Shown here: one piece after another, positions 4,463 to 61,522 of the stretch | Position numbering within the stretch: the stretch's first letter is position 1 | Layout: each line of letters starts with the position of its first letter | Assembly: GCA_030156535.1 (NCBI GenBank) | Contig: JASGMJ010000009.1 | Location: 5,237 to 69,236, forward strand | DNA length: 64,000 nt | Source: Candidatus Sumerlaeota bacterium | GTDB lineage: Bacteria; Sumerlaeota; Sumerlaeia; SLMS01; JAHLLQ01 | Direction of reading: 5' to 3' | Program-made: the position numbers and the translations under genes | Notes under the pieces: model-generated | What the model was told of the DNA's origin: nothing | Seen by the model: only the letters and a program-made list of their open reading frames with translations | Databases searched by the model: none

Positions 4463-4567
4463 CACTATTTTATCTGCTTAAATTTAATGCCAAACTAAAT
4501 CCTTGCGCCCCTGCCCTCTCCCGTGCCAGCGAGAGGCATCCTTCATCTTCGCAACCGGGTTGATCCC

Positions 4568-5845
4568 ATGTCTCGCCATCCTCTCTTGCTTCTCCTTTTC
4601 GTGCTTCTTCTCTCCGCCTGCGGGGAGAGCACTTCCACGTCGGAAACCACGTTGCGCTACTCGCGCTGGGGCCTTCCTGAGGAAATCGAAGCCGAGCGCG
4701 AACTGCTCAAGCAATTCGAGGCCGCCAATCCCGGCATTCGCGTCATCGTCGAATACAGCTCGTGGTCCGAGTACTGGAACAAGCTGCAAGCGCAGATGGC
4801 GGCCGGCTCCGCGCCCGACGTTTTCCTGATGGGCGGAACCTATGTGCATGACTACGCGGAGCGCGGCCAGCTCGAGAATCTCAACGCTCTTGCCGCTGCC
4901 GATGAGTCCTTCTCGCTCGACGATTATTTCGCCCGCACCAACGAAGTCTACACGTTCGACGATGGCCTTTGGGCACTGCCGCGCGACTGCAACACACTGG
5001 CCGTCTACTACAACAAGGCGATCTTCGACGAGGCGGGTGTTCCATATCCCGAAGAGGGCTGGACGTGGGACGACCTTGTTGAGAAAGCCCGCGCCACCAC
5101 CATCGACCGCGACAACGACGGCCGCAACGAGACGTGGGGGTTCCTCGCCAGCTTCGAGTCCCTGGAAGTCAACTGGGGCACGTGGGTCTGGCAGAACGGC
5201 GGAGCGATTCTGAACGACGACCGCACGAAGTGCCTGCTCGACCAGCCCGAAGCGGTCGAGGCGCTGCGGTTCTACACCGGGCTCGTGCTCGACGAGAAGG
5301 TCTCCCCGGACACGGCGGAGGCGTCACGCTTCGGCAGCAACATGTTCCTCACGGGCACGCTCGCGATGTCCATGGAGGGCTCCTGGCGTCTGCGCGCCGC
5401 TTCGCGCATCGAGGACTTCGAGTGGGGCATCGCGCCCCTTCCGCGTCACAAGCAGGCCGTTGCTCCTGTCAATGGACTCGGGAATTCCATCTACGCCAAG
5501 TCGAAGAACAAGGAAGCCGCCTGGCGTCTCGTCCGTTTTCTCGCGAGCGAAACGTACCAGGCCAATCTCGCCAAGTCCGGCACCTCGATTCCCGCGCTGA
5601 AGAGTGTTGCCGAGTCCGACGTCTATCTCGATGGAAACCCGCCGGGAAAGGAACTCTTCCTCCGCCAGATCGACTCGGGCCGTACGCTTCCGTTCACCAC
5701 GGGTTTTGCAAAGTGGGAAGACGCGATTCGCGGCCAGCTTGAACTCGTCTGGCTTGGCCGCAAGGACATCGACACAGCCCTGCGCGACGCCACTGTTCAG
5801 GTGGACGCGATCCTCGCCGGCAATGCGGCGGGGGAGAAGCAGTGA
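4568..5845 (+). CDS. Carbohydrate ABC transporter substrate-binding lipoprotein (family 1 SBP). An alternative upstream start exists at 4523.
   Basis: Lipobox LLLSAC-G after a hydrophobic h-region. Sugar-SBP-like body (TLAVYYNKAIFDEAG, WGIAPLP). Confidence 0.8.
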   Translation: MSRHPLLLLLFVLLLSACGESTSTSETTLRYSRWGLPEEIEAERELLKQFEAANPGIRVIVEYSSWSEYWNKLQAQMAAGSAPDVFLMGGTYVHDYAERGQLENLNALAAADESFSLDDYFARTNEVYTFDDGLWALPRDCNTLAVYYNKAIFDEAGVPYPEEGWTWDDLVEKARATTIDRDNDGRNETWGFLASFESLEVNWGTWVWQNGGAILNDDRTKCLLDQPEAVEALRFYTGLVLDEKVSPDTAEASRFGSNMFLTGTLAMSMEGSWRLRAASRIEDFEWGIAPLPRHKQAVAPVNGLGNSIYAKSKNKEAAWRLVRFLASETYQANLAKSGTSIPALKSVAESDVYLDGNPPGKELFLRQIDSGRTLPFTTGFAKWEDAIRGQLELVWLGRKDIDTALRDATVQVDAILAGNAAGEKQ

Positions 5846-6807
5846 CGGAGGGCCCCGTGCCAGCGCATCAGGCCGTTGCTCCACAGCCCGTTCCCGGGCG
5901 CCGCCGTGGTTCCCTGGCGCGCACCGAGCGTTTCTGGGGGCTCCTGCTCAGTTCCCCCTACATTCTTGGCCTGCTGTTCTTCGCCGCCGGTCCCATCCTG
6001 TTCTCCTGGATCATCGGGTTCTTTGAATGGGACAGCCTGACGCCGCCGCGCTTCGTTGCCCTGGCGAACTGGCAACGCCTCTTCACCGATCCGCTCTTTC
6101 ACAAGGCGCTCTTCAACACGCTCTATTTCGTCCTCGGCAGCGTCCCCCCCGGCGTCTTGCTCTCGCTGCTGCTGGCGATGGCGGTGAACCGCGGCATCAA
6201 GGGCATCACGATCTTCCGCACGATTTACTTCACCCCCGTTGTCACGTCCGTTGTGGCCGTTGCCCTTGTGTGGACGTGGATCTACGACACGAACGTCGGC
6301 ATCCTGAATCTGCTGATCGAGCGCACGTTCAAGCTCTTTGGCGCGCGTCCGCCCGAGCCCATCGCCTGGCTCAACGATCCCCGTTTCGCCATGCCCGCCA
6401 TCATCGCCATGAGCATCTGGAAGGGGCTCGGCTACAACATGGTGATCTTCCTGGCGGCACTGCAGGACGTTCCCACCCAGCTCTACGAAGCCGCCGAGCT
6501 CGATGGCGCCGGGCGCCTTGGCAAGTTCCGGCACGTCACGCTTCCCATGATTTCTCCTGTCACGTTCTTCGTTCTCGCGGTTTCCCTGATCGGCGCGTTC
6601 CAGGTCTTCGACCAGATTTACATCATGGCGAAGGATGGCCGCCCCGCCAACTCCACGCTGACGATTGTCTACCACCTGTACAACCACGCGTTCCGGTATC
6701 TGGAAATGGGCTATGCGAGCACCATTGGCGCGGCGCTGTTCCTGATGATCTTCGCGGTCACGCTCTTCCAGCTCTGGGCGCAGAAACGGTGGGTACACTA
6801 CCAATGA
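5842..6807 (+). CDS. Carbohydrate ABC transporter permease (MalF/UgpA-like)
   Basis: Multi-TM protein with the EAA-like loop EAAELDGAG.. and an ATGA overlap with the SBP gene. Confidence 0.85.
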   Translation: MTEGPVPAHQAVAPQPVPGRRRGSLARTERFWGLLLSSPYILGLLFFAAGPILFSWIIGFFEWDSLTPPRFVALANWQRLFTDPLFHKALFNTLYFVLGSVPPGVLLSLLLAMAVNRGIKGITIFRTIYFTPVVTSVVAVALVWTWIYDTNVGILNLLIERTFKLFGARPPEPIAWLNDPRFAMPAIIAMSIWKGLGYNMVIFLAALQDVPTQLYEAAELDGAGRLGKFRHVTLPMISPVTFFVLAVSLIGAFQVFDQIYIMAKDGRPANSTLTIVYHLYNHAFRYLEMGYASTIGAALFLMIFAVTLFQLWAQKRWVHYQ

Positions 6808-7649
6808 GCACCAGGCGCCTTTCTCCCCGTGCGGTTTCCGCGGCGGCGTTGCAGTACCTGCTGCTCGGCCTGCTGGCGTTCCTCATGGTCTTCCCCTTTC
6901 TGTGGATGGCGAGCACCTCGCTCAAGTCTTTCGGCGAGGCCTTCGCCTATCCGCCCACGCTGCTCCCGCGCGCCTGGCGCTGGAGCAACTACGGCGAAAT
7001 CTTCAACGCCATGCCGATGACGCGCTTCCTTCTCAACAGCTGCAAGATCACCGGCCTCACCGTGCTCGGTATGCTGCTCTCCTGCTCCATGGCCGCCTTT
7101 GCACTGGCGCGTCTTGAATTTCCCGGCAAGCGACTGCTGTTCGCCAGCACCCTCGCCACGCTCATGGTTCCGTACCAGGTCACGCTGATCCCCGTCTTCA
7201 TTCTGTTCCAGTATCTCGGCTGGAAGGACACGCACTACCCGCTGTGGGTTCCGGCGTTCTTCGGCGGCGCGTTTGGCGTTTTCCTTCTCCGCCAGTTTTT
7301 CATCGGCGTCCCCAAGGACCTCTATGAAGCCGCGCTCGTGGACGGCAGCACCCCCGGCGGCATCCTCTTCCGGATTTATCTCCCTCTCGCCAAGCCCGCC
7401 CTGACCACGCTCGGCGTCTTCACGTTCATGGCTTCCTGGAATGACCTGTTGAATCCGCTCATCTACATCGACACGCTGGAGAAAATGCCGCTGACGGCCG
7501 GGCTGAGTTTCCTCCAGACCCAGTATGGCAGCGACTGGCCCCTGATGATGGCGGGCGCCATGATCTCCATCCTCCCGATCCTCGCGATCTTCTTCGTGGC
7601 CCAGCGCGCCTTCATTCAAGGCATTGCCACCGCCGGGCTGAAAGGTTGA
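6804..7649 (+). CDS. Carbohydrate ABC transporter permease (MalG/UgpE-like)
   Basis: MSTRRLSPRAV..FPFLWM... and the EAA loop YEAALVDGSTP. It starts at the internal ATG 6804 of the long 6027 ORF and overlaps the previous stop by 4 nt. Confidence 0.85.
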   Translation: MSTRRLSPRAVSAAALQYLLLGLLAFLMVFPFLWMASTSLKSFGEAFAYPPTLLPRAWRWSNYGEIFNAMPMTRFLLNSCKITGLTVLGMLLSCSMAAFALARLEFPGKRLLFASTLATLMVPYQVTLIPVFILFQYLGWKDTHYPLWVPAFFGGAFGVFLLRQFFIGVPKDLYEAALVDGSTPGGILFRIYLPLAKPALTTLGVFTFMASWNDLLNPLIYIDTLEKMPLTAGLSFLQTQYGSDWPLMMAGAMISILPILAIFFVAQRAFIQGIATAGLKG

Positions 7650-7736
7650 GACAGAACAAGCGGGTTTGCCGCATTGTTTTCCGGGATCGTGAATCAATCC
7701 GGCTGACAACCGTGCCCCGCCCGTAGGAAAACAAAA

Positions 7737-9017
7737 GTGCGACACCCCTCCAGACGACCAGCCACTGAACCTTTGGAAACGGACCCCATGACTCCCGCAG
7801 CGAAAATTCCCACCCGCCCCGATCTCGTTGTCGTTCCCAACAGTTCCACGCCCGCCGATCGATCCATCGAGAAGCGCCGCCTGCGCAAGCACTCCGTCCT
7901 CAACGTCGTCCGCGCCCACGGCCCGGTCTCCCGCGCCGGGATTTCCAAAATTTCGAACTTCAACCTCCCCAGCGTCTCCGCTCTCGTCGATGAACTCGTG
8001 GAAGAGGGCCTCGTGCTCGAAGAGGAGGCCCAGCGCGTTCCCCGCGGCCGGCGCCCCATCCCCGTCCACTTGAACGAGAGCGCCGCATCGATCCTCGGCA
8101 TCGACATCGGCAAGAGTTCCACGATCGGGCTTCTTCTCAACCTCGGGGGCACGCTCATCACCCGCGTCGAGAAAAGAACCCCGTCGCTCTCCACGCCCAA
8201 GGCACACGAGGAATGGGTTGCGAAGATCGCCGCTCAGGTCTTTGCCGAGACTGGCGACAAGACTCCCCCCCTCGCCGGCATTGGCATCGGTCTTCCGGGG
8301 CTCATCGGCAAGTCCAGTTCAGGCACGGAAACCCACAACATTGCCACGCATCTGGCCACTTCCCTCGAAGCCATTTACGGCGTGTGCACCATTGTGGAAA
8401 ACGACGCGCGCATGATGGCGCTCGGTTGCATGCTCTTCGGCCAGGGGAAAGCTCTCTCCAGCTTCGCTGTCCTCAACATCGGCTTCGGTCTCGGCATGGG
8501 CCTCGTGCTCGACGGACGCCTCTTCCAGGGCACCCAGGGGTTCGGTGGCGAGATTGGGCACATCCCTCTCGGCGAGTCCGGCGTCCCCTGCTATTGCGGC
8601 AAGAGCGGCTGCCTGGAGAACATCGTTTCCGGTTCCGGCCTCGTTCGCCTGGCCAAGGCCAAGGGCCTTGCCGTCAGCGACGCCGCCGAAGTGGCCGAAC
8701 TTGCCCGCAAGGGCGACCGCAAGGCACTCGCGATCTTCCGCACTTTCTCCGAACACCTCGGCCGCACTGCCGCCGTCGTGATGAACCTCTACGATCCCGA
8801 GGCCGTCATCCTCAGTGGCCGCGTTTGCCGGGCAGGCGACCTGTTCATCGATGGGGCTCGCGCCGAACTCGAACGCCACGTCCTCGCTCCGATTGCCCGG
8901 CACAGCGAACTTCTCGTCAGCACCCTCGACGTCGACCTGGGTCCGATTGGTGCCGCCGCCGCTGTTCTCCACCGCATCTTTTTCTCCAGTCACGTCAGCA
9001 TCGACGAGGTTATCTGA
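7737..9017 (+). CDS. ROK-family transcriptional regulator / sugar kinase-like (NagC/XylR type)
   Basis: N-terminal wHTH (VLNVVRAHGPVSRAGISK), the ROK glycine-rich motifs LGIDIGKSS and GIGIGLPG, and a CxCGxxGC zinc motif (PCYCGKSGCLE). Confidence 0.8.
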   Translation: MRHPSRRPATEPLETDPMTPAAKIPTRPDLVVVPNSSTPADRSIEKRRLRKHSVLNVVRAHGPVSRAGISKISNFNLPSVSALVDELVEEGLVLEEEAQRVPRGRRPIPVHLNESAASILGIDIGKSSTIGLLLNLGGTLITRVEKRTPSLSTPKAHEEWVAKIAAQVFAETGDKTPPLAGIGIGLPGLIGKSSSGTETHNIATHLATSLEAIYGVCTIVENDARMMALGCMLFGQGKALSSFAVLNIGFGLGMGLVLDGRLFQGTQGFGGEIGHIPLGESGVPCYCGKSGCLENIVSGSGLVRLAKAKGLAVSDAAEVAELARKGDRKALAIFRTFSEHLGRTAAVVMNLYDPEAVILSGRVCRAGDLFIDGARAELERHVLAPIARHSELLVSTLDVDLGPIGAAAAVLHRIFFSSHVSIDEVI

Positions 9018-9143
9018 CCCGTTGCGGCCCCGGGCCGCGCCGGGGCGCCGATTTCGCCGTTGACAATCCCCCGGCCAGCCCCCCACACTCCGTTTATTAC
9101 AGGACTAAATTTAATACAAAAGCAACGAACCGGACAACGCCTC

Positions 9144-10241
9144 ATGCATCGCCTCGCCATTATCGGATTCGGAGACATGGGCAGCGCCCACGCTGCCGGC
9201 TTCAACGCCCTCCCCTCCTGCGAGATCGTCGCCACCGTCGAGCCTGACGCCGCACGCCTCGCCTATCGCGACGTCCCCTGGAAGAACGGCGCCCCTCCGA
9301 ACTTTGCCGACACGGCCTCCATGCTCCGCGCCATCAAGCCGGATGCCTGCGTCGTCGCCGTTCCCGACCTCCAGCACCGCGCGGTCTCCGAACTCGTTCT
9401 CGATGCCGGGTGCGACTTGTTCCTCGAAAAGCCCATCACCACCACGCTGCCCGACGCCGACGCCATTATCGCTCGTGCGCGCGAACGCGGGCGGCTTCTC
9501 CAGATCGGTCTCGTCTACCGCTACTCGAATCTTTACCGCCGCATGGCCGAGCGCGCCGCCGAGCCGGGCCATCCCGTCCGCCTCATGTGGTGCAAGGAGT
9601 TGCGCCAGTGTTTTCCCCAGCGCCCCTGGTTCTACTCGCAGCATGCAACAGGTGGCACGCTGGTGGAGAAGGACTGCCATCACTTCGATCTCTTCAACTG
9701 GATGATTGCCAGCCGCCCCGTCCGCGTCTTCGCAACGGGTGGCCAGCACGTGTGGAAGTCCGGCGCCGTCATTGACTGCAATTACTGCCCCGACGAACCC
9801 CGCGCCATCGAGGAGATCGACACCATCGATCACGCGCTCGTCACGATTGACTACGAGAACGGCGCGCGTGCCTGCCTGATCCTGTGCATGTACCTGCGTC
9901 CGGAGAACGTGATGCCCGAGGGGCTCGAAGTCGGCGCCATCGCCCTGAGTGGCAGGCAGATGATCGCGTATCGCGACGAGCGCCTTGGCGTTGGCGGCGT
10001 TGGCGATCCGCTGGCCTTCGAGCGGCTCGACATGTGGGCCGACAACCAGGGCTTCGGGCATATCGGCTGTCAGCAGCAGCGCATCGAGTTCCTCGAATGC
10101 CTGGAACAGCGCCGCGAGCCGTTTGCCAACGGCGAGGTCGGCCGCGATTCCCTTCTCGTCGCTCTCGCCGCCGAACGCTCCATCCGCGAAGAACGTCCCA
10201 TCGACCTCAAGGAGTTTGCCGCATGTCCGACCTGCGCATAA
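9144..10241 (+). CDS. Gfo/Idh/MocA-family NAD(P)-dependent oxidoreductase
   Basis: N-terminal Rossmann LAIIGFGDMGSAHA and an EKP motif (LFLEKPITTT). Confidence 0.8.
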   Translation: MHRLAIIGFGDMGSAHAAGFNALPSCEIVATVEPDAARLAYRDVPWKNGAPPNFADTASMLRAIKPDACVVAVPDLQHRAVSELVLDAGCDLFLEKPITTTLPDADAIIARARERGRLLQIGLVYRYSNLYRRMAERAAEPGHPVRLMWCKELRQCFPQRPWFYSQHATGGTLVEKDCHHFDLFNWMIASRPVRVFATGGQHVWKSGAVIDCNYCPDEPRAIEEIDTIDHALVTIDYENGARACLILCMYLRPENVMPEGLEVGAIALSGRQMIAYRDERLGVGGVGDPLAFERLDMWADNQGFGHIGCQQQRIEFLECLEQRREPFANGEVGRDSLLVALAAERSIREERPIDLKEFAACPTCA

Positions 10242-11323
10242 GCTCCACGGAAGCAGCGGCCGCGATTGAAACATCCGCTCCCGGGCGCATTTGCCTTTTC
10301 GGCGAGCACCAGGACTACCTTGGCCTGCCCGTGATTGCCGCCGGAATCGACCTGCGTGTTTCCATCGTGGCGCGTCCGCGCGCGGCCTCTCCCTTTCGTG
10401 TGGCCATGCCCGACATCCACAAGGTCGTGGAGTTCGACCCCAACAAGGAAAACACGTACTCCCACGACCGCGACTACCTCATTGCCGCCGCCAACGTTCT
10501 TCGCCGCGAAGGCGTCGAGTGGCCCTGCGGATACGACGTCGAAGTCACTAGCACGATTCCGATCAACAGCGGCGCCTCCAGTTCCTCCGCGCTCCAGGTG
10601 GCGTGGTGCGCGTTCCTGCTCGCTGCCGCCGGAGACGTCCGCGCAGCCGATCCCCGCACTGCCGCGCGCTATGCGCATCTTTCCGAGGTTGTGGAGTTCG
10701 GCTCGCCCGGCGGCATGATGGATCACTATTCGACGGCGCTCGGCGGAATCATCTGGCTCGATTGCGCCACGCACACGCCCGCGCCGCTCCCCGCCTGGGC
10801 ATCGGAGTACGTCCTCGTGGATTCCGGCATTCCCAAGGACACGAATGGCGTTCTCGGAAGCGTTCGCGCCCGCGCCGAGAGCATTGACGTCGATTTCCAT
10901 GCTCTCAACGGCGCCGAGGAATGGCCGGCCATCCATGACTCCCTTCCTCCCGATCGCCGGGGCGTCTTCCTCGCCAACGCCCGCAACAAGCAACTAACCC
11001 TGGAGGCGCGTGGCGTGATCGAGAACACCACGGATGCAGTACGCCTGGGCCGTCTCCTGTCCGAGCATCACGTGCAGCTCTCGCGCAATCTCGGTGTGTC
11101 TCTTCCTGCTATCGACGACCTTCTTGCCCGCGGCATTGCTGCGGGAGCACTCGGCGGAAAGATCAACGGTTCCGGCGGGGGAGGATCGCTTTTCCTCTTC
11201 TGTCCGGGGCGCTCGAATGAAATCGCTGCCCTGTATCAGGGCATGGGCCTGCGTGCCTTTGCCGTCGCTGTTTCAAGCGGCCTCGGACTTCTCATCGACG
11301 GAAAGGAAAGAGTCTGCTCATGA
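10223..11323 (+). CDS. GHMP-family sugar kinase (galactokinase/GalNAc-kinase/glucuronokinase-like)
   Basis: GHMP motif PINSGASSSSAL and a C-terminal GGKINGSGGGGS motif. It overlaps the oxidoreductase gene. Confidence 0.8.
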   Translation: MSDLRISSTEAAAAIETSAPGRICLFGEHQDYLGLPVIAAGIDLRVSIVARPRAASPFRVAMPDIHKVVEFDPNKENTYSHDRDYLIAAANVLRREGVEWPCGYDVEVTSTIPINSGASSSSALQVAWCAFLLAAAGDVRAADPRTAARYAHLSEVVEFGSPGGMMDHYSTALGGIIWLDCATHTPAPLPAWASEYVLVDSGIPKDTNGVLGSVRARAESIDVDFHALNGAEEWPAIHDSLPPDRRGVFLANARNKQLTLEARGVIENTTDAVRLGRLLSEHHVQLSRNLGVSLPAIDDLLARGIAAGALGGKINGSGGGGSLFLFCPGRSNEIAALYQGMGLRAFAVAVSSGLGLLIDGKERVCS

Positions 11324-12738
11324 ACAGGATTGCTCCCTCGCTTGCCACAGCGGCGCTTCTCGCGCTCCCCTCAATGATGATGGGCGGAGGCGTCTCCTGG
11401 TCGATGCAGGACACGCTCGACGCGTCTTCCTCTGCCCGGACGCTTGCCTACTTCCGCTCCGATGACTCCGTGCTTTGTCTGGAAGTCGAGGAGGATGTCT
11501 GGAGCGATCCCCGTGTTGCCGACGCAACGCGCCCCTACAAGTGCGTATTTGTTGACGTGAAGTCACCGGCTGCGGCCAGTACGGCGCTCAGGCAAGGCGT
11601 TTACGTCGTGCCCACGACGCTTGTTCTTGAAGGCGGAAGAGAAGTCGGGCGCCTGGAACGCCTTGCCGAACGCGAGGCCACGCTGCGCTTTCTCGAGAAA
11701 CCGGAGACGGTTCTCGCCCAGGCTCCCGCCTCTGCTCCCTTGCCCGCGCAGGGCACCCGGACGGGAAACTCCGAGCCAGTCTTCATGGAAGATTCCGCGG
11801 CTGATTACTCCGTCCCTGAATTGAACCTGATTGGGTTGGCTGCCGTTGAACAGGCTGGCCGCATCACCATTCAGATTCGCCTGCAATCGCCGCCCGATGC
11901 TGGCGCGTTGGGGCGCTACAATGTTTACGTGGACGCGGACGACAACGAGGAAACGGGGTTCGCCGATGCCAAGCATCGCGGCGCTGACTATTTGATTCAG
12001 GGGGCCAATTTCTACAAGTTCGGCGGCGCACAGCCCACCGAGTGGAACTGGCTGCCACCAAGGACGATCACCTTCAACCTCAGGGGGCAGGGAGTTTCCT
12101 ACTCCTTTGATCGTTCCATGATCGCCGCGCCTCCCGATTCGCAGATCAACATCTGGTCCTCCACGGTGGACGACTCCTGGAACCCGGTCGACTGGGCGCC
12201 GGACGATCGCCGCCTCACGCTCGGCAAGGGCATTTCCCTCGCCTCCACGCCCCAGCCTGCGGGTCCCGGCTCTCCCCCCGTCGCCGAGGCAACGGTCTTC
12301 AGTGACCCTGCCGGCGATGCCGATCAGCCACAGAACGACTTTGTCAGCGCGGCCGTCAACTACCAGGGCAACGACCTGCGCGTCGTTCTCGAATACAATG
12401 CGACGCCCAATCTCAACGGCCTGCACGTGATGATCGATGCCGATGCCGATCCCACGACAGGATTTGGGGACGGAGTCCGGGACGGCGCCGATTTTATGGT
12501 CGAGGGCGTTTCTCTCTATCGTCATCCGCCCTCGGCGGGAAAGAACTGGCAGTGGGAGAACCCCGTCGAGATTCCCACACGTGTCATCGGAAAGCGCGTC
12601 GAGATTCTCGTCCCCCGCTCTCGCGCGGGCATCGTTTACAACCAGCCGATTCGTCTCTGGTTCTCCACCACCGATGACGCTTGGGCGCCGTCCGACTGGT
12701 TGCCCGACAGCGGCGTCGTGAAGTTCCCCAAGCAGTAG
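11320..12738 (+). CDS. Hypothetical secreted protein with a thioredoxin-fold-like N-terminus (no CxxC) followed by an internal tandem duplication
   Basis: Signal-like N-terminus. Repeated segments GADYLIQGANFYKF..WNW and GADFMVEGVSLYRH..WQW, also ...IWSSTVDDSWNPVDWAPDD vs ...LWFSTTDDAWAPSDWLPD. ATGA coupling to the kinase gene. Confidence 0.55.
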   Translation: MNRIAPSLATAALLALPSMMMGGGVSWSMQDTLDASSSARTLAYFRSDDSVLCLEVEEDVWSDPRVADATRPYKCVFVDVKSPAAASTALRQGVYVVPTTLVLEGGREVGRLERLAEREATLRFLEKPETVLAQAPASAPLPAQGTRTGNSEPVFMEDSAADYSVPELNLIGLAAVEQAGRITIQIRLQSPPDAGALGRYNVYVDADDNEETGFADAKHRGADYLIQGANFYKFGGAQPTEWNWLPPRTITFNLRGQGVSYSFDRSMIAAPPDSQINIWSSTVDDSWNPVDWAPDDRRLTLGKGISLASTPQPAGPGSPPVAEATVFSDPAGDADQPQNDFVSAAVNYQGNDLRVVLEYNATPNLNGLHVMIDADADPTTGFGDGVRDGADFMVEGVSLYRHPPSAGKNWQWENPVEIPTRVIGKRVEILVPRSRAGIVYNQPIRLWFSTTDDAWAPSDWLPDSGVVKFPKQ

Positions 12739-12837
12739 ACGGCAGGATCCGCAGCTCGTTCTTCATCCCACCGTGAGCTTCCCGCTTAGCACGGGCACGC
12801 TGAACACGCGACGCAACCCAATGCTTCTGGACCGATT

Positions 12838-15800
12838 ATGACGCCCCGCCTTCCGCTCATCGCACTCCTGCTCACTTTCACTCCTCCAGTCCTTGCGGCG
12901 TTAACGCTCGATCCAGCGTCGCCGTCGTTCCTTCTTCAGGACGGCGAGCCACTCTCCCGTACGCCTCCACGGATTCTGCTGACCGAGTGGATTCCGACAG
13001 GAGCTTCCGCTGGCGGCGAGTCGGGTGGCGCCTCGCAAGCCCAGGGTGTCGGCTCGATCATCGAAGCGGAAACGCTCGACGCGCGCGTCCTTTCCTGGCG
13101 CGAGGATCCATGGCTAACTCAACCCACTGTGACATCCGATGGCGCGCCCCTGCACTATCATGCTGTCTTTCCACGCGATCTCGTTGTGGACTACGAATGG
13201 CAGCAGCACGGCGACCACCTTCGTGTCACCGGTGCGCTCCGCAATCTCGCCAACGATCCCGCGCGCCGCGAGGTCCCCGTCACGCTTGGCCTCGCTCTCT
13301 TCGTTGAGGACGCTAATCTGGAGTGGCTGCGCGACCATCACGTCAGCGAATCCGCCGCCAGCAACGACGAACGCATCTGGTCGGTTACGACGACGGCCGG
13401 TCCTCTCGGCGCGATGTCGCGCTACCTGCATGGCGCTGTTCGTGGGGACCGCGTGGCTCTCGCTGCAGCCTTTCCCCCCGATCAACCGCGCATCCAGCGC
13501 ATCCGCTGGGACGGCGTCCACCGGGCGCTTGTTATCGAGTTCGACGCCGTCGTTTCCGATGAGACCCTGAAGTTTCCGAACGAAGTCCCTTTCGAATTCT
13601 GGGTCTTCGATTTTCCCCGCGAGTTCGGTGCGCGTGGCGTCCTGCGTTCCTACTACGACCTCGCTCCCGATTCCTTCGCCGCGCGCAGCATGGACCAGGG
13701 GCAGTGGATGCCCTTCACCCAGATCGATCATGTCCAGCGGCCCGAGGACTTTCATTTTCGCTATCACGAGTACCATCCCAACGTTTCCGTGGCCTACAAC
13801 AACGCCAATGACATCGAGTCGCTGGTCTACTGCGAGCCGCCTGTGCAGTACGTGATTCTGCCGCAGGATGCCTTCGAGGACGCGGCACGTCTCCAGCGCA
13901 TCATCGACTCGAAGAGCGATGTCCAGGGCTCGCAGGTGCGTGGCTCGGCCGCATACAGGAGCGACGGCTCGCTCTTCGCCAACTACGTCGTGACCCCTTG
14001 GGCCACGGGCGCGCGCATACCCACCAACGGCGACCCGGAACTGCCGCGCACCGCCGGGAATCCGTACAACAGTTTCGATGCGAACTGGAAACCGTATCTC
14101 GATCTCTATCGCAACCGGGCTGCCGCGCCACCGCAGTCCTGGACCGGTGGTCTCTCCATGGACGGCGTCGTCGGGGCCAGTGGCAGGGCGTTGATGTTGT
14201 CCGCCGGGGGAAGTACGTCACAGCCAATCGAAACAAAATCAGGGACGGAGTCTCTCTCCGGCTCGGTTCGCGCCAAAGGCCGCGAAGGTGCGCACCTGCG
14301 CGTAGCCCTTTCCGGTCTGGAGGGTGACGTACGCGACTTCGCCCTCTCCGCCTCGTTCGCCGAGTATGCCTTCGAGCTTCCCGGCGGCACGGTGCTCCCC
14401 ACTCTTCTCCTTCAAGCCAGTGGTGCCGATGTCTGGATCGACGAAGTGCGTCTCGATGGCGCCTCGCTCGACAACGCCGGTTTCGAGTCGACGACCGCCG
14501 ATCCCGAACAAGTGACCGGCTTGTATCTCGACAGCTTCGAGGGGTGGGATTCCAAGGACATCAACTTCCGCCGCGAGCATTTTGCCACATCGGATTTCCC
14601 GCTGACGTTCGAAGCCACGACCGGCACCACGGGCCAGGTCATCATGATGGGCAATTTCGAACTCGCCGCGGAAGCGCGCCGCCGTTTGCACGAGCGCGGC
14701 GATTTGCTTATGGCCAACACGGCTCTCTATCAATGGGCGTGGTCCGCCCACTACCTTGACGTTCTCGGCATCGAAACGAATTGGGGAACGGGCGAACGAC
14801 TCAGTCCGCCGGACATCGGCATCATGGACTACATTCGCGCGCTCTGCTATCAGAAGCCCTACTGCTATCTGCAGAACGTGGAGTTCGACAAGTTCCGCGG
14901 CGCGAAAGTCGATCAGTACTTCGCACGCTGCCTCCACTACGGATTCTGGCCCGGGTTCTTCAGCCACAACGCGGCGGAGGCCCCGTACTGGGAGAATCCC
15001 GATCTCTACAACTCCGACCGCGCCCTCTTTATCCGCTTCATGCGCCCGCAGGCCGCCGCGACACGCGCGGGATGGGAACCCATCACGCTGGCCGCCGTTG
15101 ACGATGACGAGCTTCTCGTCGAGCGCTGGGGTGGTGCTCCCTATCGCGGCGAGATCCTCGCGCCGGACACCTTCTTCCTCACCGTTTACAATCCCACGGA
15201 TCGACTTCGCCAAGGCAGTCTGACCCTTGATTCGCGCCTCACAGGCGGGCGGCGCTATCTTGCCATCGACGCGCTTGGCGGCAGCCGGGCCACAACCGAT
15301 TCCAGCGGCAACGTCACGCTTGCGCTCGCTCCTCTCGACGTGACGTTGATTCAGTTCGTCGCACGTGACGACGCGGGAACGGAAACAACTCTCGCGGCCG
15401 CGCAGCAGGAACTCCTCGCTCTCGCCGCCAAGTGGCAGCGCCACGGCATGATCGATGCAGAGGCCGTCCAGCAACTCGCCCGTCTTCAGAACACAGAGGC
15501 ACTCGGCGACCGTCTTGGCATCGTCACCTCCTGGCGCACCGGGCATCGCTCGCAACTCGAACCGCTCTATCAGTTCGAATTCGACCGTGCCTTCTCCACA
15601 TGGCGCCTGCTCCTTGCTGCGCGCGACGAGGCGGCATCGGGTCAGTTGTTCGATCCACAAGTGCCTTCGCTCGTGACGCCCGGCGAAGACGCCATCCTTC
15701 GTGTCAGCGAAGCTTTTGCCGATCGTGATCTGATCGCCAGCGCTGAGTTCGCCGGCACTTCCTCCTCGTATCCGCTCACCGACGGCGTTGCCACGATTCC

Positions 15801-16662
15801 CATTCCCGCGTCACTTCCCATTGGCGAGAAAGTGCGCTTCTCCATTCAGCCCCGCGACGCCCTTGCTCCCTCTCCGCATTTCGAGTCACACGCCGAAGTG
15901 CGTCCGGCACTCGGACTCCTTGCGGTTCCGGCATCCCTGACGGCGGGCGATCAGGTTCCGCTTGGCTTTGCCGTTCGTAACAATCTGGCAAGGCCGCAGG
16001 CGGGAACGCTTCGCCTTGTTCTTCCGCCCGAGTGCGGCGCCGTCGCCCCGATGCCTCTTGAACTCTCGGCGGGCGAGGAGCGCTCGATCCTGATTCCCCT
16101 GTCCATCGAGCAACGCCCTGCCGATCTGGATGCCGTGCGCACGGTTCGTATTGAGTGGCACCGCCGCGATTCCGGCGATCTCATTACGCAATCGCTCCCG
16201 CTCACAATTCTCGCGCGCGGCGCCAGCCTTCTGCGCGGGCATGGTATTACGGCGCATGTCGATTCCGCCTACTTCGGCTACGACACGCGTCCCCTGACGG
16301 ATGGCGTCACGGACACCCGCAACGTTGATTGGGTCGATGCCGCCTGGGCCAGCGAGGAAGCCCTCGTACCGCACTGGGTCGAGTTTCGTTTCGCGGAGCC
16401 GCTTCGCATCTCCGAGGTCAAGATCTGGTGGGCGCTCGACAACGGCGTCTACCACACATCCGCGCACCTCTTGATTCAGGGCACCCGGGATGGAGAGACG
16501 TGGCAGACGCTCGTGACGCACACCGATCCGACTCCGTCCCCGGTTTCCACGTATGCGCTCGATGCCACGCCGTTGCGCGGCTTGCGCCTTCTCCAGCCTG
16601 CGGGTGGTGGTGCTCCCACGCGTCCTGGCATCCTCTGGCTCGGCGAGGTGGAGGCGCGATGA
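12838..16662 (+). CDS. Large (1274 aa) secreted hypothetical protein with a C-terminal F5/8-type-C (discoidin / CBM32-like) domain. Putative glycan-binding or glycan-degrading.
   Basis: Signal peptide MTPRLPLIALLLTFTPPVLAAL. C-terminus WVEFRFAEPLRISEVKIWWALDNG...LIQGTRDGETWQTL is typical of discoidin domains. Confidence 0.6.
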   Translation: MTPRLPLIALLLTFTPPVLAALTLDPASPSFLLQDGEPLSRTPPRILLTEWIPTGASAGGESGGASQAQGVGSIIEAETLDARVLSWREDPWLTQPTVTSDGAPLHYHAVFPRDLVVDYEWQQHGDHLRVTGALRNLANDPARREVPVTLGLALFVEDANLEWLRDHHVSESAASNDERIWSVTTTAGPLGAMSRYLHGAVRGDRVALAAAFPPDQPRIQRIRWDGVHRALVIEFDAVVSDETLKFPNEVPFEFWVFDFPREFGARGVLRSYYDLAPDSFAARSMDQGQWMPFTQIDHVQRPEDFHFRYHEYHPNVSVAYNNANDIESLVYCEPPVQYVILPQDAFEDAARLQRIIDSKSDVQGSQVRGSAAYRSDGSLFANYVVTPWATGARIPTNGDPELPRTAGNPYNSFDANWKPYLDLYRNRAAAPPQSWTGGLSMDGVVGASGRALMLSAGGSTSQPIETKSGTESLSGSVRAKGREGAHLRVALSGLEGDVRDFALSASFAEYAFELPGGTVLPTLLLQASGADVWIDEVRLDGASLDNAGFESTTADPEQVTGLYLDSFEGWDSKDINFRREHFATSDFPLTFEATTGTTGQVIMMGNFELAAEARRRLHERGDLLMANTALYQWAWSAHYLDVLGIETNWGTGERLSPPDIGIMDYIRALCYQKPYCYLQNVEFDKFRGAKVDQYFARCLHYGFWPGFFSHNAAEAPYWENPDLYNSDRALFIRFMRPQAAATRAGWEPITLAAVDDDELLVERWGGAPYRGEILAPDTFFLTVYNPTDRLRQGSLTLDSRLTGGRRYLAIDALGGSRATTDSSGNVTLALAPLDVTLIQFVARDDAGTETTLAAAQQELLALAAKWQRHGMIDAEAVQQLARLQNTEALGDRLGIVTSWRTGHRSQLEPLYQFEFDRAFSTWRLLLAARDEAASGQLFDPQVPSLVTPGEDAILRVSEAFADRDLIASAEFAGTSSSYPLTDGVATIPIPASLPIGEKVRFSIQPRDALAPSPHFESHAEVRPALGLLAVPASLTAGDQVPLGFAVRNNLARPQAGTLRLVLPPECGAVAPMPLELSAGEERSILIPLSIEQRPADLDAVRTVRIEWHRRDSGDLITQSLPLTILARGASLLRGHGITAHVDSAYFGYDTRPLTDGVTDTRNVDWVDAAWASEEALVPHWVEFRFAEPLRISEVKIWWALDNGVYHTSAHLLIQGTRDGETWQTLVTHTDPTPSPVSTYALDATPLRGLRLLQPAGGGAPTRPGILWLGEVEAR

Positions 16663-27648: not shown

Positions 27649-29984
27649 GTTTCCTGCGCTCCTTTCATCTCCTGACTTACGCCACTGCACTTTGGGCCTT
27701 CCTCGCCCTCGTTTCCACCGGCCAGCTTCATCTCCCGGCCGTGGCGTTCTTTCTTCTCGCGTATATCGTGGCCATCAGCTGCCACCGCCGCGGTATTCGC
27801 TTGCCCGGACTGATGTGGACCTTCGTCTCGCTCGGGGCCTTTGCCCTCGCCTTGTACGGCTGGCAGATCGTGGGAGAACGTCTCTACTCCGTCACGTATT
27901 TCTTCCTGTACCTTGAAATCAACAAACTGTTCACGGCGGAGAAGAACCGCGACTACCTTCAGGTCTACGCGCTTACCTTCTTCCAGGTGCTCGCCGCTTC
28001 CGTCTCCACGGAATCCGTGCTCTTCGCTCCCATGCTTGCCGTCTACGTGTTCCTCGTGATCGCCTCGTTGATGACCTTCACGATCAAGCGCGATGCCGAG
28101 ATCGCGTTCGCCGCAACACGCCGGAAGGATCGCTCCACTGATCCCTCCGCCCCCCGGCCCGCCGCTGCCACGCGCGCCGTGGCCGAGCGCATCGCCGCCG
28201 CGCCCTACCTCGACAGCCGCCTCACCGCCTGGCTGAGCATTCTTACGTTTCTCGTTCTTCTCATTGGCTCTGTTGTTTTCTGGATCGTCCCACGAACTTC
28301 CAGTCCCAACTTCTTCACCGGCCTGTCGGGACGTCAGGGCAACACCGCGAAGAGCGCCTTCTCCGACAACATCGACTTCTCGGGTATGGAGCAAATCCAG
28401 AACGACCCGACCATCGTCATGCGTGCCACTCCCGAAGCAGACGACTTTCAGACCCGCCCGGAGTTCCTGCGCATTCGCGGAACCGCCTTGGATCTCTTTA
28501 CCGGGCGCGAGTGGAGCAAGTCGCCCCTCGTTGCCGGGCGCATCTCCTCCCGCCGCGAGTCATCGGTCATCCTCACCGACCAAGGGGTGCAGGGCACTCC
28601 CTTCACGGCGCGCATCACGCTCGAGCCCGAATCCTCCGGCTATTTGTTCTCCATCGATCAACCCTACAATATCGACCTCCCCGAGTTTCACCATCTCGAC
28701 ATCGACGTTGAAAGCGGCTCGGCACGTTCGCTTGTTTCGCGCTCCGCCCCCATCAGCTACACGTCCACCGGGATGCTCAGCGAAACGGCACAGAGCGCCG
28801 GATCGAATCCGCTGCGCAACAGCCTGGCAGCGCCCGGCGGTGCGCGGCGGGCTCCCGCCATCATCGAGGAGACCGGGCGCCGGCTTGCTGAAATCGCCGA
28901 ATCCATCCGCCTCATTTCCGGTCTTTCCTCCCGGGGCAAGCGTGCCATCGTCAGCGATCCGAACTACCTCCAAACACCCCGCACGGCCGACATGCGCGTC
29001 ATCACCGAGACTGCTGCCGCCTGGACGGAGGGGCTGACGGACGACAATGCCCGGGCGCACCGAATCGAAGAACGCCTCCGCACCGAGTTCGACTACTCAC
29101 TCGACATTTCTTTCAGCAACCGCGAGGACCACCTCGCCTACTTCCTCACCGAAGCACGCCGCGGGCACTGCGAGTACTTTGCCACCACCATGGCACTCAT
29201 GCTCCGCTCCCAGGGCATTCCCTCGCGCGTCGTGAACGGTTACCTCACCGATGAGTGGAGTCCTTCCAGCCGCCGCTACATCGTCCGCCAGGAACACGCA
29301 CACTCCTGGGTGGAAGCCCAGATTGACCACACTGGCCGCTGGTTCACCTTTGATCCAACGCCCGCCTCCGGCATCGGTTCCAATCGTATCTCCCACTCCT
29401 TCTATCACACCTTCAGCCAGTGGACGGACGCGTTGAAGGTGTTCTGGTATGAGAGCTACATCGACTTCAACCTTACCGACCAGCGCGAGGGAATCATCGC
29501 CTTCCTGCGCACCCTGCGAGCGGGGCGCGAGAAGGCCAGAACAGGAATGACATCGCTGGGCAGCTTGTGGACGGGCGATTCGGTTCTACCGATAAACGGA
29601 CGCCAGCTTCTCGGCGGCATGCTTCTCTTCATTGGTCTCGGGCTGGCGGCTTTCCTCAGCGTCCATGTGCGCCGGTTCCTGCCGCTCGCATCGCGTGACG
29701 GCCGCTCTCCCCGCGACGGCTATCTCACGCCTGCGCGGGTCCGCGTGTACATCGGGCTGCTGCGTCAGGCCGAACGGCTTCGTCCGCGCCCACCGTCGCA
29801 GACCCCCCTGGAGTATGCCCGCACCCTGGCTGACCAATCCGGGGAACAACTGCGGCCGTTCCACGAGCTGACCCAGGCCTACTACGCCGTGCGTTACGAT
29901 CAGGCGCCTTGGACGCCTGAACTCGACGAGCTCGCCGCCCAGGCACGCCAGCGTTTCGCTGAACTCAGCCCGGAAACGTCATGA
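27645..29984 (+). CDS. Transglutaminase-like membrane protein (DUF3488-TGase core-DUF4129 architecture)
   Basis: N-terminal multi-TM region. TGase Cys motif GHCEYFATTMALMLRSQGIPSRVVNGY plus HAW(V)E. ATGA overlap with the DUF58 gene. Confidence 0.8.
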   Translation: MSFLRSFHLLTYATALWAFLALVSTGQLHLPAVAFFLLAYIVAISCHRRGIRLPGLMWTFVSLGAFALALYGWQIVGERLYSVTYFFLYLEINKLFTAEKNRDYLQVYALTFFQVLAASVSTESVLFAPMLAVYVFLVIASLMTFTIKRDAEIAFAATRRKDRSTDPSAPRPAAATRAVAERIAAAPYLDSRLTAWLSILTFLVLLIGSVVFWIVPRTSSPNFFTGLSGRQGNTAKSAFSDNIDFSGMEQIQNDPTIVMRATPEADDFQTRPEFLRIRGTALDLFTGREWSKSPLVAGRISSRRESSVILTDQGVQGTPFTARITLEPESSGYLFSIDQPYNIDLPEFHHLDIDVESGSARSLVSRSAPISYTSTGMLSETAQSAGSNPLRNSLAAPGGARRAPAIIEETGRRLAEIAESIRLISGLSSRGKRAIVSDPNYLQTPRTADMRVITETAAAWTEGLTDDNARAHRIEERLRTEFDYSLDISFSNREDHLAYFLTEARRGHCEYFATTMALMLRSQGIPSRVVNGYLTDEWSPSSRRYIVRQEHAHSWVEAQIDHTGRWFTFDPTPASGIGSNRISHSFYHTFSQWTDALKVFWYESYIDFNLTDQREGIIAFLRTLRAGREKARTGMTSLGSLWTGDSVLPINGRQLLGGMLLFIGLGLAAFLSVHVRRFLPLASRDGRSPRDGYLTPARVRVYIGLLRQAERLRPRPPSQTPLEYARTLADQSGEQLRPFHELTQAYYAVRYDQAPWTPELDELAAQARQRFAELSPETS

Positions 29985-30070
29985 CCACTCTTTCCGCCAT
30001 TGCCACCACTCGTCCCGGTGCTTAGCACGGGGCGACGCAACCCCGCACTCCATCGCGCAGGCAGCTTCCC

Positions 30071-30949
30071 GTGACTACCGCTTCTCTTCCGCAAGATCTC
30101 CTGAAGTGCCACTCCTTCTCCATCGGCTCCGTCCCCGTGGGAGGGGCCAATCCCCTCGTCCTGATCGCCGGACCGTGTGTGATCGAGAGCCGCGAGCACG
30201 CCCTCGAAATGGCCGAGCGCATCGCCCGCATCGCCCAGCGCCTTTCGATTCCGCTCATCTTCAAGGCTTCCTACGACAAGGCGAACCGCAGTTCCTCGCA
30301 ATCCTACCGGGGGCCGGGTCTCGAACGCGGGCTGGCGATTCTCGGGGAAGTCCGCTCTTCCGTCGGGTGTCCCGTTCTCACGGATGTTCACACCGAAGAG
30401 CAGGCTGCCGTTGCCGCCAGCGTGGTCGATGTCCTGCAACTCCCCGCTTTTCTCTGCCGCCAGACGGATTTCGTTCAGGCATGCGGACGCACGGGCAAGC
30501 CAGTTGCCGTGAAAAAGGGGCAGTTCCTTGCTCCCGAGGACATGACCAACGTTGTCGAGAAGCTGCGCGAAGTTGGGTGCAACGACATCCTGCTCACCGA
30601 ACGCGGCGCTTCGTTCGGCTACCGCAATCTTGTCTCCGACTTCCGTTCACTTGCCATCATGCAGGCGCTGACCGGTCTTCCCGTTTGCTTCGACGCAACG
30701 CATAGCGTTCAGCAACCCGGTGGCCTCGGAACGGCTTCTGGTGGCAAGCGCGAGTTCGTTCCGCTCTTGGCGCGGGCGGCCTGTGCCGTTGGCATCAACG
30801 TCTTGTTTCTCGAAGTACACGACCGGCCCGAGCAGGCGCTGAGCGACGGCCCCAACATGGTGCCTCTCACTGATCTCGAAGCCCTGCTCAAGGTCTGCCT
30901 GGCACTTGATGCCGCTGTTCGCTCGGCTCTGCAGGACGGTGCGCAGTGA
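30071..30949 (+). CDS. kdsA: 3-deoxy-8-phosphooctulonate synthase (KDO8P synthase), GTG start
   Basis: [23 protein letters not shown] and ATHSVQ motifs are characteristic of KdsA. Confidence 0.9.
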
Positions 30950-41132: not shown

Positions 41133-41442
41133 GTTGAGCTGCCTGTCCTATATTGAGATAGTGAAATGCTTAAAGACGAGAATGGATACGCCTCGACTTG
41201 CCGGTGATGAGAACCGCTCCCATGCCCCGTGTCAAGCTGGAAGGGAGACTTTTTTGCAGATACTTCTCGCCGATCCACAAATCGAAGAGATTTTCTGTCT
41301 GATACTTTGCATTCTGATTCTATTGGGCTTGAGGGTGGGTGGAGATGCGTGTCGCCGGGCTCTGAAGCTGGCTGCTTAGTTGTCGGGGCCAAAAAAAATC
41401 ACATTCGGCACCCTGAATCTATCGCGCTCCACATTGCCGTCA

Positions 41443-42042
41443 TCAGGCGGGATCTTCTGCTGCGCCATCAGCCGATATCATGGTGGACTTCTCTGGACGC
41501 CCGGCGGCAAGACCTCTCCGCCGCCCTATAATTGAAGCTACCCTCCTTGCCGCTCCCCAGGCAATCAGGAAAGCGCCCCATCCTGCAATAATCCCCCCCC
41601 AAGCCCACTGGAGGTCCTCCCATGTTGCGTTGCGTTTTGGGATGAACTGTTGCCGATACTCATCATAAGCGGGAATCAGGAGCACCGCCAGCAGCGGAAT
41701 CCCCAGTGCCACCCACTTCCACCGCCGCCCCAGAAGGCGTATTCCCAGAAACCCCAGAAAACCGGCCAGCAACCCGTAGGGCACGGAGACGGCGAAGTGG
41801 AGATAGTAGTCGATATGCCTGGGAGGGGTCTTGCGCCATCTCGGGGGAGTCAGTGCATGGACGATCCGGTTGCTCCGGATTTCCTTCTCATACCGTTGCG
41901 TCGTCGCAACGGGGGAGGTGGCCAATGTCGTGGTGAAGGCAAAGTAGCCTCCCAGAATACAGAGGGCCAAGCCGAGCAGCACGCTCAACCTAAGGTGACT
42001 CCGGCGAGACTGATTATTCTTTTGTGGGGAACATTCCTGCAT
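41443..42042 (-). CDS. Small polytopic membrane protein, possibly VanZ-like
   Basis: Four predicted TM helices. The assignment is weak. Confidence 0.35.
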   Translation of the reverse strand: MQECSPQKNNQSRRSHLRLSVLLGLALCILGGYFAFTTTLATSPVATTQRYEKEIRSNRIVHALTPPRWRKTPPRHIDYYLHFAVSVPYGLLAGFLGFLGIRLLGRRWKWVALGIPLLAVLLIPAYDEYRQQFIPKRNATWEDLQWAWGGIIAGWGAFLIAWGAARRVASIIGRRRGLAAGRPEKSTMISADGAAEDPA

Positions 42043-42130
42043 TGTCGGGGCAACTTCCCTATGTTGTCATTCTTCCGGAAAGAGCAACTCGCGGGCCGGA
42101 GAGTCAGCACGGCTTTCGTGCCTGCAATCT

Positions 42131-42192
42131 CGTGTCAAGCCGCGCAACGTGTCCACCCTTTTGCATATGCAAGCACAACGTGGCTTGACACG
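42131..42192. promoter_or_regulatory. Nested palindromic element in a 440-bp divergent intergenic region. A 14-bp inverted repeat (cgtgtcaagccgcg / cgtggcttgacacg, 1 mismatch) flanks a perfect palindrome TTGCATATGCAA.
   Basis: Seen directly. Each IR arm carries TTGACA (a -35-like hexamer) facing a divergent gene. Confidence 0.35.
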
Positions 42193-42483
42193 CGAAATCC
42201 TCCGCCCTTACATCCCCCCGCCACTGCGAGGGGCGTCGCGTTCAAGGCTCCATGGATTGTTGTTTTCCATGTCGAAGCCGTTCTGCTCTCCGTCTCTCCG
42301 TCTCCTGAAATGACTCTCTCGAGCCTTTTCCGTTTGTTCGGAAATCGGCAACGGGGAAGATTTCGTCTTCCCTCACCCACTTGATTCCCAATCCTGAAGT
42401 CTTGTTCGAGAGCACCTCGCATTGCGCTGCGCCAGTTGATCTGGCTTCTGTGACAGTAACAATTCCCCCAAGGTAGGAAATTA

Positions 42484-61253: not shown

Positions 61254-61522
61254 CCTCATTGTCCGCTTGCGCCTGTTTGTTCGCTTCAAGTAGGCGCTTC
61301 ATTGAAAACACATTTTTGTGTCACAAGTTAGCACTGGACACGCGGGAAATGCTTCCACTAATGTCCGCTCCACTATTGAGTTAGCACTTGGTCACTAACC
61401 CACATAACGTTCCTACAAAGCAATGAACCTCGGTTAACGTCAGTGCAGGGTGGCGAAAGACCCGGCTGCTCTACACCAATTCAGAATCAATCGAATCACG
61501 GACAGGCGGGCGGCTATGCCTG
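61254..61522. promoter_or_regulatory. Lower-GC intergenic region with a direct repeat AGTTAGCACTGG / AGTTAGCACTTGG and the partial palindrome GTTAGCACTTGGTCACTAAC. Probable promoter/operator for the wecG-wecB unit.
   Basis: Seen directly. The TTAGCAC core recurs in other intergenic sites (12786, 30022). Confidence 0.3.

Follow-up and report, generated by a model that had tools for sequence, protein, structure and literature searches.

Among described bacterial elements, two kinds of short conserved sequence come closest to the one considered here. REP units, imperfect palindromes that are often accompanied by a RAYT transposase, usually number tens to hundreds of copies. JUMPStart/ops, the RfaH recruitment site of enterobacterial polysaccharide operons, is a 5' UTR element of the gene that opens the operon. 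In the current study, analysis of a 64,000-nucleotide stretch of a Candidatus Sumerlaeota contig (the window) revealed a two-box element which resembles REP/BIME and BOX repeats in that it is short (20–60 nt), species-private and located in intra-operon spacers that are probably transcribed, and in that it is built of modules with variable linkers and near-identical copies. It differs from REP/BIME in not being palindromic, in being visible as only two copies in the window and in the lack of a RAYT gene in the window; the one near-palindrome observed occurs in copy 2 only, through the private flank of that copy. With JUMPStart/ops it shares the character of a short conserved, non-promoter sequence positioned 5' of envelope-polysaccharide genes (kdsA and possibly a WecG-family gene), where it would act in a transcribed leader. 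In contrast to JUMPStart, which belongs to the 5' UTR at the head of polysaccharide operons, the two-box element is found at internal junctions, and the discoidin-domain gene behind copy 1 is part of a sugar-utilisation operon. The ops core GGCGGTAG is absent from both leaders, its only two copies in the window being in coding DNA on the minus strand (26502 and 54805), and no NusG paralog was seen in the window. On these comparisons the element is most like a private repeat of the REP/BIME or BOX type or a leader sequence of the JUMPStart kind, yet it lacks the testable defining feature of each, namely the palindrome and the ops core, respectively.

The initial annotation had located two 12-mers, here termed Box 1 and Box 2, at 12784/12808 and again at 30020/30032, separated by 12 and 0 nt, upstream of a gene for a 1274-aa secreted protein and of kdsA. 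Both the coordinates, all on the plus strand, and the identity of the downstream genes were confirmed, the former gene encoding 1274 aa with a signal-peptide-like N-terminus and an F5/8 type C domain, and the latter a protein with a DAHP_synth_1 domain whose homologues are named KDO-8-P synthase. The features referred to throughout are as follows:

12739 to 12837, plus strand: spacer 1 (99 nt), from the 472-aa conserved gene (stop at 12738) to the 1274-aa discoidin-domain gene (ATG at 12838); no SD.
12773 to 12841, plus strand: candidate uORF 1, from GTG to TGA, reading VSFPLSTGTLNTRRNPMLLDRL and then stop; the stop overlaps the main ATG (ATGA).
12784 to 12795, plus strand: Box 1 of copy 1, GCTTAGCACGGG, exact match.
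12796 to 12807, plus strand: linker present in copy 1 only, CACGCTGAACAC, 12 nt (a multiple of 3), weakly similar to Box 2.
12808 to 12819, plus strand: Box 2 of copy 1, GCGACGCAACCC, exact match.
29985 to 30070, plus strand: spacer 2 (86 nt), from the TgpA-like transglutaminase gene (stop at 29984) to kdsA (GTG at 30071); no SD.
30018 to 30074, plus strand: candidate uORF 2, whose stop overlaps the kdsA GTG (GTGA) and which is continuous with the TgpA frame past its TGA.
30020 to 30031, plus strand: Box 1 of copy 2, GCTTAGCACGGG, exact match.
30032 to 30043, plus strand: Box 2 of copy 2, GCGACGCAACCC, exact match, abutting Box 1 (gap of 0 nt).
61328 to 61355, plus strand: possible partial relative 5' of the WecG-family gene, with TTAGCAC, CTGGACACGCG and AATGCTTC, colinear with 12786, 12800 and 12820 of copy 1.
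61381 to 61387, plus strand: second TTAGCAC 5' of the WecG-family gene, followed by AACCCA; weak.

The boxes of the two copies are identical at 24 of 24 positions. Despite the internal difference of 12 nt, Box 1 begins at a similar distance from the start codon in both cases (54 nt in copy 1 and 51 nt in copy 2), and the end of Box 2 is 18 nt from the ATG at 12838 and 27 nt from the GTG at 30071. On the left, a short flank, TCCC(GGT)GCTTAG, is common to both copies apart from an indel; on the right, similarity ends immediately after Box 2. The near-palindrome CCGGTGCTTAGCACGGG is composed of Box 1 of copy 2 and its private left flank, and is absent from copy 1. Box 1, linker and Box 2 were also examined as a tandem 12-nt direct repeat of the response-regulator type, a reading that was rejected as the best in-phase identity is 5/12, which is the chance level. 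Comparison of the boxes with 16S rRNA segments, PurR and cre half-sites, LexA boxes and boxA never produced matches beyond 6–8 nt, while the shared 9-mer AGCTTCCCG is uninformative because it is present four times in the window.

Both operons have a conserved gene order, DUF58-TgpA-kdsA-truA in the one and GFO_IDH-GHMP kinase-unknown-discoidin in the other. The junction between TgpA and kdsA, which spans 86 nt in the window, measures −4 nt in L004, 34 nt in L001 (the relative with an 82%-identical KdsA, where the junction carries an SD-like GGAG) and 227 nt in L002, and the junction before the discoidin gene, which spans 99 nt in the window, measures 11 nt in L006 and 27 nt in L007, a complete Candidatus Sumerlaea genome. 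Tight junctions (−4 to 34 nt) are thus seen in relatives at three of four kdsA and both of two discoidin-gene junctions and, since the same junctions are tight in most relatives, the two copies are placed by this comparison in extra, lineage-specific DNA at internal operon junctions. The element itself is found neither at the orthologous kdsA junctions of L001, L002 and L004 nor at the orthologous discoidin-gene junctions of L006 and L007, all of these being distant relatives (identity of up to 82% for KdsA and up to 47% for the discoidin protein). KdsA of the window is 100% identical to the Candidatus Sumerlaeota protein P0001, the next relative being 82% identical and the rest at most 74%; for the 1274-aa protein no homologue exceeding 47% identity was present among 5.8 billion proteins. 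SD-like motifs precede approximately 20 of the 46 genes in the window, with none ahead of the discoidin gene or kdsA. The GC content of the spacers (0.61 and 0.67) is coding-like, compared to 0.43–0.55 in the likely promoter regions of the window.

The origin of the additional DNA was considered from two sides. The spacers do not represent decayed C-terminal tails: the 472-aa protein ends level with its homologues and the TgpA end falls within a length-variable tail, and no conserved C-terminal part has been lost, as both upstream genes end where their homologues end. Partial duplication of neighbouring coding DNA was likewise rejected for the spacers (P = 0.06–0.77, not significant). Spacer 2 contains short matches to the first 70 nt of kdsA (CCACTCyTTC, CGTCCCsGTG and CTCCATCG), and it is possible that it derives from a partial duplication of the kdsA 5' region (alignment P = 0.06). 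The start of this spacer (29984–30017) harbours a 13-nt imperfect direct repeat, ACCACTCTTTCCG / ACCACTCGTCCCG, 21 nt apart. The TgpA frame remains open for a further 29 codons past its TGA (29982–30074), the closing TGA overlapping the kdsA GTG, and this open frame could be the product of a recent nonsense mutation, a sequencing error or coincidence; the same stop-over-start arrangement occurs directly at the TgpA/kdsA junction of L004. The P0001 record (270 aa) begins 22 codons downstream of the GTG at 30071, at 30137, and its deposited start is probably too short because orthologues of 287–293 aa align from 30071.

The recurrence of the two 12-mers had been regarded as negligibly probable by chance, an estimate which does not hold for the window as a whole and which survives in weaker form, as unlikely (approximately 1e-3), once the location of the copies in spacers and on the sense strand is considered. 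Single 12-mers recur abundantly, there being 941 distinct repeated 12-mers and approximately 990 recurring pairs (557 direct and 434 inverted), and spacer 1 alone has four further exact 12–13-mers matched elsewhere in the window. The colinear 12+12 pair is the only instance in the real window; at the 11+11 level the one other colinear pair is the local hairpin at 42131–42192, and at the 10+10 level there are nine clusters of such pairs. When 64-kb windows were simulated and searched for a 12+12 pair with gaps of at most 30 nt, at any place and in either orientation, 7% (order-3 Markov) and 11% (order-5) contained one, so that the window-wide chance is about 0.1 and not negligible. What makes the pair improbable is its position, both copies lying on the sense strand in short spacers 5' of genes: spacer 1 (12739–12837) shared a chain of 24 or more matched bases with any other intergenic region in one of 150 dinucleotide shuffles (approximately 0.007), the gapped local alignment of the two spacers scored 45, above all 400 shuffles (P < 0.0025), and an analytic estimate restricted to leaders (up to 100 nt 5' of starts) gave approximately 1e-3. 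The possibility that two unrelated 12-mer matches have simply fallen side by side draws on the abundance of such matches, on the simulated windows and on the fact that the element has neither conservation nor a third copy; set against the position of both copies in spacers of less than 100 nt, about 50 nt from start codons, and against the shuffle, alignment and leader-restricted probabilities, it is unlikely. The similarity of the spacers is probably real, with a small residual share for coincidence.

Beyond the two copies, the composite pattern CTTAGCACGGG-N0-30-GCGACGCAACC (11+11 bases) gave no exact match in one genome per species of 185,579 species, in 241 million JGI metagenome records or in IMG/VR. 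When relaxed to 10+10, the metagenome scan gave five loci, of which three have one and the same sequence (two of these labelled as human-gut contigs) and two are unrelated; they are considered chance-level matches because all of them lack the flanking bases. With an nhmmer profile of the two copies, no third copy was detected in the window or in 105 kb from Sumerlaeota relatives, the next match having E = 9.7. A candidate third copy at 41226–41237 (GCTTGACACGGG, minus strand) was rejected, its local alignment having P = 0.35, and is better described as a TTGACA −35-like word.

The initial annotation had further reported that TTAGCAC, the core of Box 1, occurs twice upstream of wecG; both occurrences are present, although the first begins at 61328 rather than at 61329, the second being at 61381 as given. 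In the window TTAGCAC has five copies, all on the plus strand and four of five intergenic, which places it among the most intergenic-enriched 7-mers, where all others at its level are A/T-rich; the enrichment is lost after correction for testing all 7-mers. Copy 1 and the wecG upstream region share the blocks TTAGCA, CTG(A/G)ACACGCG and AATGCTTC, a chain whose score of 22 is the second best among all intergenic pairs, and in none of 150 shuffles did the second-best chain of spacer 1 reach 22. The local alignment of the two regions is marginal (P ~0.04), and the wecG upstream site was not detected by the nhmmer profile of the two copies. The genomic relatives of WecG are at most 54% identical and derive mostly from Planctomycetota, Acidobacteriota and Sporosarcina, none being labelled Sumerlaeota; because the closest are labelled Planctomycetota and Acidobacteriota and not Sumerlaeota, there are hints that WecG was horizontally acquired. 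TTAGCAC matches in Sporosarcina lie not in a leader but at or beside the aligned homologous gene, in a position that is conserved. Within the 269-nt region 5' of the WecG-family gene, the sequence AGTTAGCACT(T)GG is present twice, 53 nt apart (61326–61392).

Among the functions that had been suggested for the motif was that of a promoter element, for which no support was obtained given the variable spacing of the boxes, the GC-rich spacers, the mostly tight intra-operon junctions found in their place in relatives and the lack of a sigma-70-like −35/−10 pair in either spacer. A regulator operator or other site for a trans-acting factor, likewise among the suggestions, may apply; the window offers two full sites and the marginal sites 5' of wecG. 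A sigma-70 consensus scan for −35-like and −10-like hexamers 16–18 nt apart returned no sites in 12600–12900 or 29900–30150. The hexamers 17 nt after TTAGCA are CGACGC and GCACTC, and neither copy has a −10-like hexamer 16–19 nt past TTAGCA. No intrinsic terminator (GC-rich hairpin and T-run) was found in either spacer and, as both promoter and terminator are lacking and the junctions of most relatives are tight, the spacers are probably transcribed within polycistronic mRNAs. A sigma-54 promoter, TGGCAC-N5-TTGC with its invariant GG and GC 10 nt apart, was rejected since Box 1 has AG for GG and the nearest GC is displaced by one position, being too distant in copy 2 and too close in copy 1. 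Taken together, the two boxes do not fit a fixed −35/−10 or −24/−12 geometry, as their spacing differs by 12 nt between the copies. Elsewhere in the window GCTTGACACG is located at 41228–41237 (minus), 42131–42140 (minus) and 42183–42192 (plus), in each case intergenic and facing the downstream gene. TTGACA occurs 13 times in the window against 21.7 expected, with 99 of 100 shuffles having at least as many, and this under-representation suggests that it is a functional −35 here; in combination with the placement of GCTTGACACG, it suggests that GCTTGACACG may be an extended −35 element of the housekeeping sigma factor of this organism.

The boxes may still be read in duplex DNA, as an operator or internal promoter that drives or represses the downstream gene within the operon, Box 1 being a −35-like element or a transcription factor half-site and Box 2 a second contact. 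Box 1 GCTTAGCACG matches GCTTGACACG, the local form of the sigma-70 −35 (TTGACA), at 8 of 10 positions, and this reading gains from the three gene-facing intergenic occurrences of GCTTGACACG, from the scarcity of TTGACA and from the near-palindrome around Box 1 of copy 2. Box 1 differs from a −35 in the loss of the third-position G, in the missing −10 partner at 16–19 nt and in its variable spacing to Box 2, while the sigma-54 GG-N10-GC spacing misses by one position, in a different direction in each copy, the near-palindrome is not shared by copy 1, and the spacers lack the AT-richness seen in the likely promoter regions of the window; a role in duplex DNA is therefore considered unlikely. 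If the boxes were instead conserved helices of a structured cis-regulatory RNA, be it riboswitch-like or a protein-binding hairpin, folding should be apparent, and each spacer can indeed form a hairpin with CACGG of Box 1 in its 3' arm (−12.8 and −16.5 kcal/mol). These local hairpins have private, non-shared 5' arms and different registers, however, and fold z-scores range overall from −1.5 to +1.3, being +1.33 and −0.06 for the spacers and +1.26 and +1.04 for the shared 36-nt and 24-nt segments, which fold worse than their own shuffles. At gathering thresholds Rfam had no match in the whole window, and at E ≤ 10 only meaningless matches of 3.7–12.8 bits, so that the structured leader-RNA motif proposed at the outset is without support and a structured RNA is largely refuted. 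A further possibility is that the boxes are read as a leader peptide (..LSTG..RRNP..) within relay uORFs whose stop/start overlap would permit termination-reinitiation at the SD-less main cistron. As in stop/start-overlap translational coupling, which real gene pairs in the window commonly employ in the ATGA form, the boxes lie in short frames that end as ATGA or GTGA at the main start; both boxes occupy a single reading frame in each candidate uORF, the same in both copies and preserved by the 12-nt indel, and both main genes are without an SD. What differs is that the upstream frame is here a candidate ORF of 18–22 codons with a GTG start and no SD, and that the overlap is common by chance: A follows 21 of 46 gene starts in the window, so that an NTGA overlap is not distinctive, and the joint chance of frame and overlap is roughly 0.02–0.05. 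The two copies show no synonymous variation, and the junctions of relatives do not encode a peptide of this kind; the relay uORFs are improbable.

Two further readings, about equally likely, account for more of the observations, and of these a recognition site is ranked first. On this interpretation, which we hold tentatively, the element is a lineage-specific, cis-acting and spacing-tolerant site ahead of two SD-less cistrons of conserved operons. It accords with a pair that is non-random once position is counted, with the sense-strand placement of both copies and the position of Box 1 54 and 51 nt before the start codon, with spacers that are probably transcribed and stand where most relatives have tight junctions, with the lack of an SD ahead of either downstream gene when approximately 20 of 46 window genes have one, and with the intergenic enrichment of TTAGCAC and its two additional occurrences 5' of the WecG-family envelope-polysaccharide gene, one of them with two further colinear blocks. 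The shared sequence would be accessible, being unstructured (z of +1.0 and +1.3). Against a recognition site stand the limitation to two copies in the window, the putative nature of the factor, the marginal wecG similarity (missed by the profile search), the failure of the TTAGCAC enrichment under correction for all 7-mers, the lack of conservation at the two orthologous junctions, the closest relative (KdsA 82%) included, and the absence from every public collection scanned; moreover, an identity of 24/24 with sharp edges is unusual for independent binding sites and more like recent copying. Such copying is central to the other reading, almost as likely as the first, in which the element arose as an ectopic short-patch copy or is a short interspersed repeat that is young and private to the lineage, co-transcribed and essentially neutral or at most affecting mRNA stability. 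The unit would be a mosaic of REP/BIME- or BOX-like kind and of about 29–43 nt, TCCC(GGT)GCTTAGCACGGG(N0/12)GCGACGCAACCC, recently copied into two spacers that have grown in this lineage. Perfect identity within blocks, abrupt edges and a whole-block indel are what would be expected of it, as are the location of both copies in extra DNA that has no counterpart in most relatives, the absence from relatives and from all collections scanned, and the mosaic of blocks, copy 1 having blocks that are missing from copy 2 or from the wecG site. It is weakened by a shared part that is not palindromic, by the presence of only two copies in 64 kb with no degenerate ones found by the profile search, and by the absence of a transposase or RAYT-like gene among the window proteins, while the shared orientation and near-equal distance to the start codon would have to be coincidence. 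Outside the unit the two enlarged spacers are unrelated, and insertion of a single element would therefore not by itself account for their greater length. A MITE or IS remnant finds no flanking inverted or direct repeats (neither terminal inverted repeats nor target duplications) around either copy and no transposase domains in the window proteins. An attachment site or island boundary, with the copies as direct repeats 17 kb apart, was rejected because TgpA-kdsA synteny spans the right-hand copy in relatives.

Were the recognition site to be real, the two boxes would be read independently of each other by a trans-acting factor, be it a protein or a small antisense RNA, and the extra 12 nt between them would thereby be tolerated. 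The target of this factor would be the co-transcribed spacer, with single-stranded mRNA a likelier form than duplex DNA, and the factor would set the translation or processing of the downstream SD-less cistron. A broader and rather unlikely extension is that of an undescribed control module of the Sumerlaeota lineage, marked by the two boxes and the partial copies 5' of the WecG-family gene and inserted at internal junctions ahead of SD-less envelope/glycan cistrons, in which a spacing-tolerant two-box mRNA site or a relay uORF would have replaced the ancestral tight translational coupling, with kdsA, the discoidin-domain protein and wecG under one putative trans-acting factor. The two-box element as it stands is a private example of a short conserved intergenic word, and a new mechanism is not evidenced. 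The literature found on the Sumerlaeota comprises genomic and ecological surveys (for example PMC8092238), and no description of cis-regulatory elements of this phylum was found in their titles and abstracts. A true recognition site would hence provide an entry point to regulation inside operons or after transcription in an uncultured phylum, and would show how a longer regulated spacer can take the place of a tight operon junction with translational coupling. If the element is a neutral private repeat, its value is as a caution only: identical 12-mers are abundant in a GC-rich 64-kb window, and significance must therefore rest on position and not on length.

The wider gene content of the window was also recorded. 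Copy 1 resides in a sugar-utilisation locus (4523–16662) encoding a solute-binding protein, an ABC permease, a ROK-family regulator (with a weak, sub-threshold MarR-type HTH match), a GHMP (galactokinase-like) kinase, the 472-aa protein and the 1274-aa discoidin-domain protein. The order GHMP kinase/472-aa/discoidin is kept across Sumerlaeota (L006 and L007), and in relatives it is preceded by a GFO/IDH/MocA oxidoreductase gene. From about 32500 to 63600 the window is taken up by a large envelope or exopolysaccharide cluster, which includes a Wza-like exporter, a Wzc-like tyrosine kinase, a Wzy/O-antigen ligase-like protein, UDP-glucose dehydrogenase, PGA_cap, an asparagine-synthase-like protein, two GT1 glycosyltransferases, a heparinase II/III-like protein, WecG and UDP-GlcNAc 2-epimerase. 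In the region between the divergent VanZ-like gene (41443–42042, minus strand) and the UDP-glucose dehydrogenase gene (42484–43845, plus strand) there is an inverted repeat at 42128–42195 with 17-nt arms (TCTCGTGTCAAGCCGCG / CGTGGCTTGACACGCGA, 88% complementary) around a perfect 12-nt palindrome, TTGCATATGCAA (42161–42172). Each arm contains an outward-facing TTGACA, and the arrangement looks like an operator between two divergent promoters.
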